DNA of 64,000 nucleotides from Thermoanaerobaculia bacterium (GTDB lineage: Bacteria; Acidobacteriota; Thermoanaerobaculia; Multivoradales; UBA5704): assembly GCA_036275055.1 (NCBI GenBank), contig DASUEN010000222.1, positions 26,498 to 90,497 on the forward strand. Reading direction: 5' to 3'. Each line of letters starts with the position of its first letter. Positions within the stretch are counted from its first letter, which is position 1. The translations under genes and the position numbers were made by a program. A model generated the notes under the pieces. That model had not been told where the DNA came from and did not search any database. It was given only the letters and a program-made list of their open reading frames with translations. Of the stretch, positions 28,307-30,535 are shown piece after piece.

Positions 28307-28596
28307 TGGATCGTCCTCCTTTCTCCTATACAGAGTCGTGAGGCCGGCCAACGTTACACTCGGTGCAAAAAAGAGGCCATGACCTGGGGCAGGGTCTCAG
28401 ACTCCCCAGGCCTCACGGCCAGGCCGATCGAGGCGCCGCAGACCGTCCCCAGGATCAGGATAGACGCATAGGCCTTGGTGATGATCGCATCCGGCAGGCT
28501 CACCAGGAAGGAAGCGTTCTGGGAGGTGACGTCCAAGAGCTGGCGTTTTTGGTGTTCATGGCTTGGTGTTATAGTGGATGAAACGGAGGATAGAGG

Positions 28597-29604
28597 ATGA
28601 GGGAGAAGAGGCGTGGCTTGATCGTCGGCATCGACCACTACAGCCATGCGAGCATGAAATTGAGATCCGCTGTGGCGGACGCGCGCTCCATGGCGCGGAT
28701 GCTCGTAAACCATGCCGACGGTACGGCCAACTACGACTGCGTCCTTTGGGCGGACAGAACCGAGCACGATCAACTCATTACTCGCGCCGCCTTGCGCGGG
28801 GCGCTGCAGCAGCTCTTCGCGAATTTCAGAGGCGATCTCGTATTCTATTTTTCCGGCCACGGCGTCATCACCGCCACCGGCGGTTGGCTGGTGACCTACG
28901 ACGGGATTCGGAACGACTGGGGAGTCTCGATGAGCGAGGTTTCCGAGCTGGCCCTGCAATCCCAGGCGAACGACATCCTGATCCTTCTCGACTGCTGCCA
29001 CGGCGGAGACCTCGGCAACTCGGTGCTGCTGAATGGCGGAGGGGGTGGCAGAGAGACGGCTCTCATGCGCGAGGACATGACGGTGATCGCTGCCTCTTTG
29101 CCCCAAGAGTCCGCCATCGAGGCGCCTGATCACGGCATGTTCACCGCGGCGGTCCTCAATGCCCTCGAAGGAGGATCGGCGGATCCCATGGGATGGGTGA
29201 CGGCGCCGTCCATCTACACCTATGTCGAGCGCCGTTTCGGTGGCTGGCCCCAGCAGCCCGTCTACAAGTCTCACGCCACCAAGGTCACGGTCGTGCGTCA
29301 ATGCCCGCCACAGATCGACCGGGTGAAGCTGGGCCGGCTGACCGAGCTGTTTCCCAAACGGGATTCTCTTTACCGGATGCATCCGGACTACGAACCGGAA
29401 GACGAGCACGGAAAAGTGCACAAGCCGGTCCACCGGGACAAAGTGGAAATTGCACAGCTCTTCAAGCTGTACCGGGATGCAGGGCTCCTCAAGCCCACCA
29501 TTGCCGGCGAGCAGTTGTACTGGACGGCCCGCCGGTCGCATACCGTCGAGCTGACGCTGCGCGGCCAGGAGTATTGGGTTCTGGTGAAAGACAACAAGGT
29601 CTGA
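28597..29604 (+). CDS. caspase-like (peptidase C14/orthocaspase) domain protein with uncharacterised C-terminal domain
   Basis: 335 aa. GGAGGATAGAGG SD. Catalytic dyad contexts LVFYFSGHGV (His) and ILILLDCCHGGDLG (Cys) = C14 signature. Confidence 0.75.
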   Translation: MREKRRGLIVGIDHYSHASMKLRSAVADARSMARMLVNHADGTANYDCVLWADRTEHDQLITRAALRGALQQLFANFRGDLVFYFSGHGVITATGGWLVTYDGIRNDWGVSMSEVSELALQSQANDILILLDCCHGGDLGNSVLLNGGGGGRETALMREDMTVIAASLPQESAIEAPDHGMFTAAVLNALEGGSADPMGWVTAPSIYTYVERRFGGWPQQPVYKSHATKVTVVRQCPPQIDRVKLGRLTELFPKRDSLYRMHPDYEPEDEHGKVHKPVHRDKVEIAQLFKLYRDAGLLKPTIAGEQLYWTARRSHTVELTLRGQEYWVLVKDNKV

Positions 29605-29605
29605 C

Positions 29606-30106
29606 ATGCGGATCGCGATCACCGGACACCAGACTCTCCGGGGGTCTCGCGGATGGGGCTGGATCGAGGGAGAGCTGCGCAGGATCGTCACCGGGTGCAG
29701 CCCGCCCTGGATCGGCCTGTCCTCGCTCGCCGTCGGTGCGGATCAGCGTTTCGCTGAGATCGTATTGCAACTCGGCGGTGCGATCGAAGTGATCGTGCCC
29801 TTTCCGGGCTACGAAACCCGATTCGCCGCTGAGGAGGAGCGTGCTGCCTATCGCCGGCTGCTCGCCGCGGCCCAGGCGGTGAAAGTTCTGCCGCGCGTGA
29901 GCGAGAACGACGAGGAGCTGTACTTCATCGCCGGACGGCGAGTGGTCGACGAGTCCGACCTGCTCATCGCCGTCTGGGACGGCCGTCCCGCTGCCGGCCT
30001 CGGCGGCACCGCGGACGTGGTGGCCTACGCCGGCCGGCAAGGGATCAAGGTCGTACAGGTCAACCCTGTCGATGGGCTCGTCACCGAGAGCCCTCGCGGA
30101 GCCTGA
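29606..30106 (+). CDS. SLOG-superfamily (YpsA/DUF1273-like) nucleotide-binding protein, translationally coupled to the caspase-like gene
   Basis: 166 aa. Start is 1 nt after the upstream stop (TGACATG). MRIAITGHQTL..SSLAVGADQRFAEIVLQLGGAIEVIVPFPGYETRF...LYFIAGRRVVDESDLLIAVWDG..GGTADVVAYA follows the YpsA/SLOG motif spacing (ITG, GxD, PF, DG, GGT). Confidence 0.5.
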   Translation: MRIAITGHQTLRGSRGWGWIEGELRRIVTGCSPPWIGLSSLAVGADQRFAEIVLQLGGAIEVIVPFPGYETRFAAEEERAAYRRLLAAAQAVKVLPRVSENDEELYFIAGRRVVDESDLLIAVWDGRPAAGLGGTADVVAYAGRQGIKVVQVNPVDGLVTESPRGA

Positions 30107-30214: not shown

Positions 30215-30535
30215 ATGCGCAGACTGACTCTGACTCTCCTCGGATTGGCGTTGCTCTTCACCGCTACGGCCGTCTTGGCGGCGGAACCTGTCGCGACCGA
30301 CGGGGCCGCACCCGCGAGCGCGCTGGCCACGACCGTCGCCCCACCGGCCCTCATCGACCAGATCCTCGAGCCTTCGCCATCCGCCATCACGCCCATCTGT
30401 CCCCCGGAGCCGGTCGTGAGCTGCAACTCCTGTTTCTTGTTCGGAACGACGACCAGCTTCCAATGCACGCTGTTCTGCTCGAATGGGGTCCTCCACAGGA
30501 GCTGCAGCCCCTGCGGCACGGGGTGTCCGCTGTAG
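30215..30535 (+). CDS. small secreted Cys-rich protein (10 Cys in about 80-aa mature region)
   Basis: 106 aa. MRRLTLTLLGLALLFTATAVLAAEP signal peptide. C-terminus ICPPEPVVSCNSCFLFGTTTSFQCTLFCSNGVLHRSCSPCGTGCPL. Confidence 0.5.
   Translation: MRRLTLTLLGLALLFTATAVLAAEPVATDGAAPASALATTVAPPALIDQILEPSPSAITPICPPEPVVSCNSCFLFGTTTSFQCTLFCSNGVLHRSCSPCGTGCPL

Follow-up and report, generated by a model that had tools for sequence, protein, structure and literature searches.

Introduction

In bacteria, the link between TIR signalling and cell death of the caspase type was made by type IV Thoeris, whose hallmarks are activation of a protease by N7-cADPR and abortive infection as protection against phage. 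As published, it is encoded by two genes, one for a short TIR protein (ThsB-like) and the other for a caspase-like protease (Rousset et al., Science 2025; bioRxiv 10.1101/2024.10.24.620036), and these authors hypothesise that the C-terminal domain of the caspase binds N7-cADPR (bioRxiv 10.1101/2024.10.24.620036). The EACC1-caspase system likewise consists of two genes and includes a caspase-superfamily protease (Kaur et al., eLife 2020, PMC7159879). SLOG domains have been predicted both to make and to sense nucleotide signals (PMC6459960; PMC7159879). [quoted passage not shown] PMC6459960 traces SLATT-SLOG conflict systems to Burroughs et al. 2015, and the Pfam families SLATT_1 and SLATT_3 carry the name "SMODS and SLOG-associating 2TM effector domain".

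A translationally coupled caspase-SLOG gene pair

The whole stretch of DNA analysed here (the window) is 64 kb long. Both reading frames that the initial annotation had called as a coupled pair lie on its + strand at the positions given for them, gene 2 starting one nucleotide past the stop codon of gene 1. The features of the locus are the following:

28585..28589, + strand: GGAGG, Shine-Dalgarno-like motif 7 nt 5' of the gene 1 ATG (read from the sequence)
28597-29604, + strand: gene 1, caspase-like protease with a C-terminal domain, 335 aa (ORF call)
28609..29283, + strand: caspase (C14) catalytic domain, residues 5-229 (Pfam envelope)
28858-28860 and 28996-28998, + strand: codons of His88 and of Cys134 (inside DCCH), the catalytic dyad of gene 1
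29293..29601, + strand: C-terminal domain, residues 233-335, common to TIR-adjacent caspases (domain-only HMM)
29602..29608, + strand: TGA-C-ATG stop/start junction with one base between stop and start, translational coupling (sequence)
29606-30106, + strand: gene 2, stand-alone SLOG (YpsA-like) protein, 166 aa (ORF call)
30215-30535, + strand: Cys-rich mini-ORF, 108 nt 3' of gene 2 (ORF)

The product of gene 1 matches Peptidase_C14 (PF00656) with 61.2 bits against a Pfam cut-off of 21.4, and contains the motifs FYFSGHG, with His88, and LLDCCHGG, with Cys133 and Cys134. More than 600 homologues were found, and residues H88, D132, C133 and C134 are unchanged across 50 of them, in agreement with the intact His/Cys dyad claimed at the outset. 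The structural model adopts a caspase fold, for which Foldseek returned MALT1, the metacaspase Yca1 and caspase-7 (E ~1e-10); the loop directly past the catalytic cysteine (residues 143-154) was modelled with low confidence. By its score, its caspase-hemoglobinase fold and its SGHG/DxCH dyad, gene 1 is a member of Peptidase C14.

A search of the PDB with the full-length model returned caspase folds only, with a top TM of ~0.5 and no solved type-IV-Thoeris-like caspase standing out. In PADLOC-DB v2 (2023), which is older than type IV Thoeris, gene 1 matches PDLC02987, a generic "caspase" profile, within the catalytic domain alone, and gene 2 has no match. Among the NCBIfam profiles the best match of gene 1 is caspase_w_EACC1, but its 90.5 bits fall short of the cut-off of 140. 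The EACC1-caspase system was discarded as an assignment on account of this score and of the lack of a single-TM EACC1 gene on the 5' side; the partner here is a cytosolic SLOG protein encoded on the 3' side. No sigma-70-like promoter was recognised by consensus scan, and the promoter and terminator scan gave nothing above shuffle expectation.

The C-terminal domain relates gene 1 to TIR-adjacent caspases

The sequence following the catalytic domain had been described in the initial annotation as some 130 unassigned residues. The part free of Pfam matches is shorter, about 105 residues (230-335), and it does have relatives: an HMM built from this domain alone retrieves the caspases of TIR-caspase operons with E values from 1e-8 to 1e-16, and the domain shows numerous invariant columns among the 50 homologues. 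A weak NCBIfam match to a Cu-responsive regulator (E 0.069) was set aside as chance.

The relationship extends from end to end. Gene 1 aligns with TIR-adjacent caspases at 99-100% coverage and 31-36% identity (31% identity and E 9e-55 for a full-length alignment), these reference caspases being called type IV Thoeris by architecture and being other than the experimentally tested proteins. They adjoin TIR genes of 123-137 aa in B. subtilis pBS72, Pseudarthrobacter, Providencia and E. coli pCREC-591_1, and the E. coli plasmid loci found are plain TIR-caspase. The E. coli Liu-DS6 operon is described as carrying a fifth, uncharacterised gene 3' of the caspase gene (PMC13069673). Judged from these alignments, gene 1 is homologous over its full length, C-terminal domain included, to caspase effectors of type IV Thoeris architecture, with which it shares both length and layout (a C14 domain followed by a C-terminal domain of ~100 aa). 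Since gene 1 aligns in this manner, the caspase-SLOG pair is not a free-standing novelty.

Gene 2 is a YpsA-like member of the SLOG superfamily

Sequence searches with gene 2 (Pfam, NCBIfam, PADLOC and a PDB profile search) yielded YpsA as a sub-threshold match only, and a fold search was required for its identification. Its score against Pfam YpsA (PF06908) is 14.5 bits, below the gathering score of 27.7, while its relatives reach 18-24 bits, and the profile search of PDB sequences found 2nx2 at an E value of only 0.15. The protein has a SLOG-type Rossmannoid fold with the corresponding motifs: strand 1 is followed by a glycine-rich loop, strand 2 by a GxD/E motif, and a further glycine-rich loop lies in the C-terminal half. 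The residues concerned are G7-H8, G44-A-D46 and G131-L-G133-G134-T135, invariant and kept in every genomic context; the polar side chains of H8, D46 and D137 show no or almost no variation in any context. More than 600 homologues of gene 2 were found. Thus, the YpsA/SLOG match proposed for gene 2 holds for the SLOG fold and motifs but not for PF06908, and the protein belongs to the YpsA-like branch of the SLOG superfamily, outside the YpsA family proper by score. It further differs from B. subtilis YpsA in its LOG/DprA-like GxGGT loop and in its surroundings: gpsB, the neighbour characteristic of the Firmicutes cell-division clade, is absent, the neighbours being the caspase and then DoxX/ECF sigma and E1 dehydrogenase genes, and its clade is partnered not by cell-division genes but by effectors of conflict systems.

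The SLOG gene is an integral member of a conserved operon

Genome loci were retrieved with a SLOG profile (n=80), and in 45 of them, from numerous phyla, a caspase gene lies directly 5' of the SLOG gene, so the two are conserved as neighbours. A short TIR gene is also present in 31 of these 45 loci (TIR-caspase-SLOG), while in the remaining 14, of the same type as the window, a search out to 10 kb revealed no TIR of this kind. The distance between caspase and SLOG genes is at most 10 nt in 41 of 48 related loci, with an overlap of 1 or 4 nt in 25 of the 48, and the TGA-C-ATG junction is identical in the two closest relatives, L086 and L087. B. subtilis pBS72 is an example of TIR-caspase-SLOG, and the order TIR-caspase-SLOG-TIR2 is seen on p4 of Rhizobium (R. 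binae). Given the adjacency to caspase, the frequent TIR, the short junctions and this gene order, the SLOG gene is an integral member of the operon. The proposal of a two-gene conflict module therefore stands as regards a conserved, coupled pair, but the commonest form has three genes, TIR-caspase-SLOG, and the window holds a TIR-less derivative of it.

With respect to published type IV Thoeris, most relatives of the pair share the short TIR gene directly 5' of the caspase, whereas the window and its two closest relatives lack it, possess a SLOG gene that is absent from the two-gene description and, in the case of the window, are found on the chromosome outside any defence island. In the literature searched, neither a SLOG gene in type IV Thoeris nor a caspase with SLOG but without TIR was found described. 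A recurrent, selected SLOG third component of type IV Thoeris is undescribed in that literature.

The Cys-rich mini-ORF is present downstream as had been noted, but it had no tblastn match in the 80 loci and is missing from L086 and L087, and was ruled out as a third component.

Recurrent TIR-less pairs, and purifying selection in the clade of the window

No type-IV-like TIR was detected in the window with a 36-sequence HMM against the six-frame translation (E<=50), nor in L086 and L087, nor within 10 kb of the other TIR-less pairs. Among the complete genomes with a TIR-less pair are those of Humibacillus xanthopallidus (CP084995) and Dactylosporangium vinaceum (CP061913). The loss of TIR is recurrent, since TIR-less pairs are spread over at least six caspase clades of a neighbour-joining tree drawn without support values. 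No recurrent substitute gene was seen 5' of the caspase in the six-frame ORF lists of TIR-less loci, which are noisy at high GC. In the clade of the window (three genomes) the pair is retained while the flanks are rearranged, and dN/dS, at dS values of 0.42-0.63, amounts to 0.10-0.15 in the caspase gene and to 0.24 in the SLOG gene, so this clade is under purifying selection. On account of the tree positions, the absence of a TIR within 10 kb, the retention independent of flanks and the low dN/dS, TIR-less pairs look viable rather than accidental.

The pair is flanked in the window by genes for an ECF sigma factor, DoxX (directly 5' of gene 1 and divergently oriented) and a 2-oxoacid dehydrogenase; a check for a defence island found these instead of defence genes. 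No mobile-element or defence genes occur near the pair, a scan for an island boundary found no tRNA, and GC at the pair shows a mild dip (59-63% against 64-71% in the flanks). This chromosomal setting would suit a pair domesticated for a task outside immunity, for instance regulated proteolysis tied to stress or development and controlled by a nucleotide metabolite, or the non-functional remnant of a decayed defence operon, and so would the cell-division role of B. subtilis YpsA itself and the clear pseudogenisation of the related loci L035 and L038. We regard both as very unlikely, however, as both reading frames are intact and no catalytic or motif residue is missing, the dN/dS values across the three genomes argue against a remnant, and the nearest TIR-bearing relative, L001 (62-66% identical), has a standard defence architecture.

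Possible roles of the SLOG protein

Our preferred reading, held tentatively, is that the pair is a TIR-less effector derived from type IV Thoeris, with a SLOG partner that provides the nucleotide cue or processes it. We infer an anti-phage role, ligand gating through the C-terminal domain and enzymatic signal-making by the SLOG protein. Gene 1 would be the effector, a caspase-like cysteine protease that stays inactive until it is bound by a ligand derived from a nucleotide, most likely via the conserved C-terminal domain, and once activated it would degrade cellular proteins and thereby abort the infection. The SLOG protein, translated in step with the caspase, would handle the nucleotide cue as a TIR-analogous enzyme acting on an NAD+/ADP-ribose-type substrate, making the molecule that switches the caspase on, or helping to make it in loci with a TIR. 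It is taken as the upstream input because no TIR is encoded here, the pair is under purifying selection and its clade stands in TIR-like positions elsewhere. Such chemistry is plausible in view of the LOG N-glycosidases that the SLOG fold takes in, the conservation of H8, D46 and D137, and published predictions.

The other contexts of the clade bear on this question. Its members are fused to TPR repeats, to a STAND/AAA NTPase or to TIR+WD40, and are also paired with or fused to SLATT and 8xMP membrane effectors. The latter include a SLOG+8xMP fusion (P0252), the order TIR-8xMP-SLOG (L093), SLOG+DUF4231/SLATT fusions beside a large TIR protein (L092, P0381) and a SLATT gene adjoining SLOG in Spirillospora (L075) and in 22 Streptomyces-type loci, these SLATT-SLOG pairs having no TIR nearby. 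The clade of gene 2 is in this respect shared with SLATT-SLOG systems, but the effector in the window is a soluble caspase-like protease and not a 2TM pore protein; a tblastn search with the SLATT protein of L075 against the window and all loci gave no match in the window, SLATT partners being confined to other members of the clade. One SLOG clade thus joins caspase, SLATT and 8xMP effectors into a single family of systems. From its fusions (TPR, STAND/AAA, TIR+WD40) and TIR-free SLATT pairs, the clade occupies the positions of signal-making or output domains, which would favour a signal maker. The assignment of SLOG as sensor and caspase as effector, made in the initial annotation, is therefore one of three live models, and the TPR, STAND and TIR-WD40 fusions together with the recurrent TIR-less pairs favour signal-making at least as strongly as sensor wiring.

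Several observations count against a signal maker. We know of no experimental demonstration of catalysis by a YpsA-like SLOG protein, and the one characterised immune SLOG domain, that of the type I Thoeris effector ThsA, is a receptor for cADPR and not an enzyme. A proven signal maker, TIR, is already present in two thirds of the caspase loci, so the SLOG protein could be an accessory there; classical type IV systems function without a SLOG gene, a TIR may be encoded elsewhere in the genome of the window's MAG, and the flanks are metabolic and regulatory, not defensive. Moreover, the SLOG+8xMP and SLOG+DUF4231/SLATT fusions have the classic sensor-effector layout that favours a receptor.

The SLOG protein might accordingly be a ligand receptor or gate that binds a nucleotide signal and activates the co-translated caspase by protein contact, like a split ThsA (SIR2-SLOG). 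In loci with a TIR the signal would be the TIR product, and in the others a nucleotide made in trans or derived from the infection. This would fit a clade fused to, or encoded directly 3' of, effectors without a sensor of their own (P0252, L092, P0381, L093, L075), and a SLOG gene that in almost all cases comes second, overlapping the effector gene or separated from it by a minimal gap. Nevertheless, we consider it unlikely: the caspase retains its C-terminal domain, sufficient in type IV systems without SLOG, so that another receptor would seem superfluous; in over half of the effector-SLOG loci no signal maker lies within 10 kb; and the TPR, STAND and TIR-WD40 fusions place SLOG at the output rather than the receptor position.

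A negative regulator seems more improbable still. Here the SLOG protein would act on N7-cADPR-type signals, opening them as a LOG-like N-glycosidase or sequestering them as a sponge, and would set a threshold for the caspase or reset it, as ring nucleases do in type III CRISPR, with TIR-less loci being signalled by a TIR encoded elsewhere. LOG-clade SLOG enzymes do cut ribosyl-adenine N-glycosidic bonds, and viral YpsA-like SLOG domains have been proposed as degraders of cADPR signals (PMC9503650). Stand-alone homologues of gene 2 are encoded by 38 actinophages (BFVD models with TM up to 0.84), the presence of TIR in most caspase loci would make the SLOG gene an add-on, and its arrangement, tightly coupled to a toxic effector, resembles that of an antitoxin. 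However, an effector with an off-switch but no activator should decay, yet TIR-less pairs recur in at least six clades and, in that of the window, are under purifying selection; SLATT-SLOG pairs also occur without TIR, and fusions to sensor repeats would be unexpected for a signal-degrading enzyme.

The preferred reading of SLOG as signal maker can be widened, although in that form it is rather doubtful. YpsA-like SLOG proteins would constitute a second, TIR-independent class of immune signal-making enzymes, which, on sensing infection, would turn a substrate of the NAD+/ADP-ribose type into a small messenger. Caspase-like proteases would be switched on by this messenger, as would the SLATT or 8xMP membrane effectors of sister systems, and the pair in the window would be a complete and self-sufficient "SLOG-Thoeris" system. 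Should the activating nucleotide be made or reshaped by the SLOG protein, this would give the first evidence for the long-predicted enzymatic signalling by SLOG domains of conflict systems, and a new messenger could emerge; as a receptor or signal hydrolase, the protein would instead represent a host-encoded gate or off-switch for Thoeris signalling, comparable to CRISPR ring nucleases. The maker, receptor and hydrolase models predict opposite phenotypes in two- or three-gene constructs.

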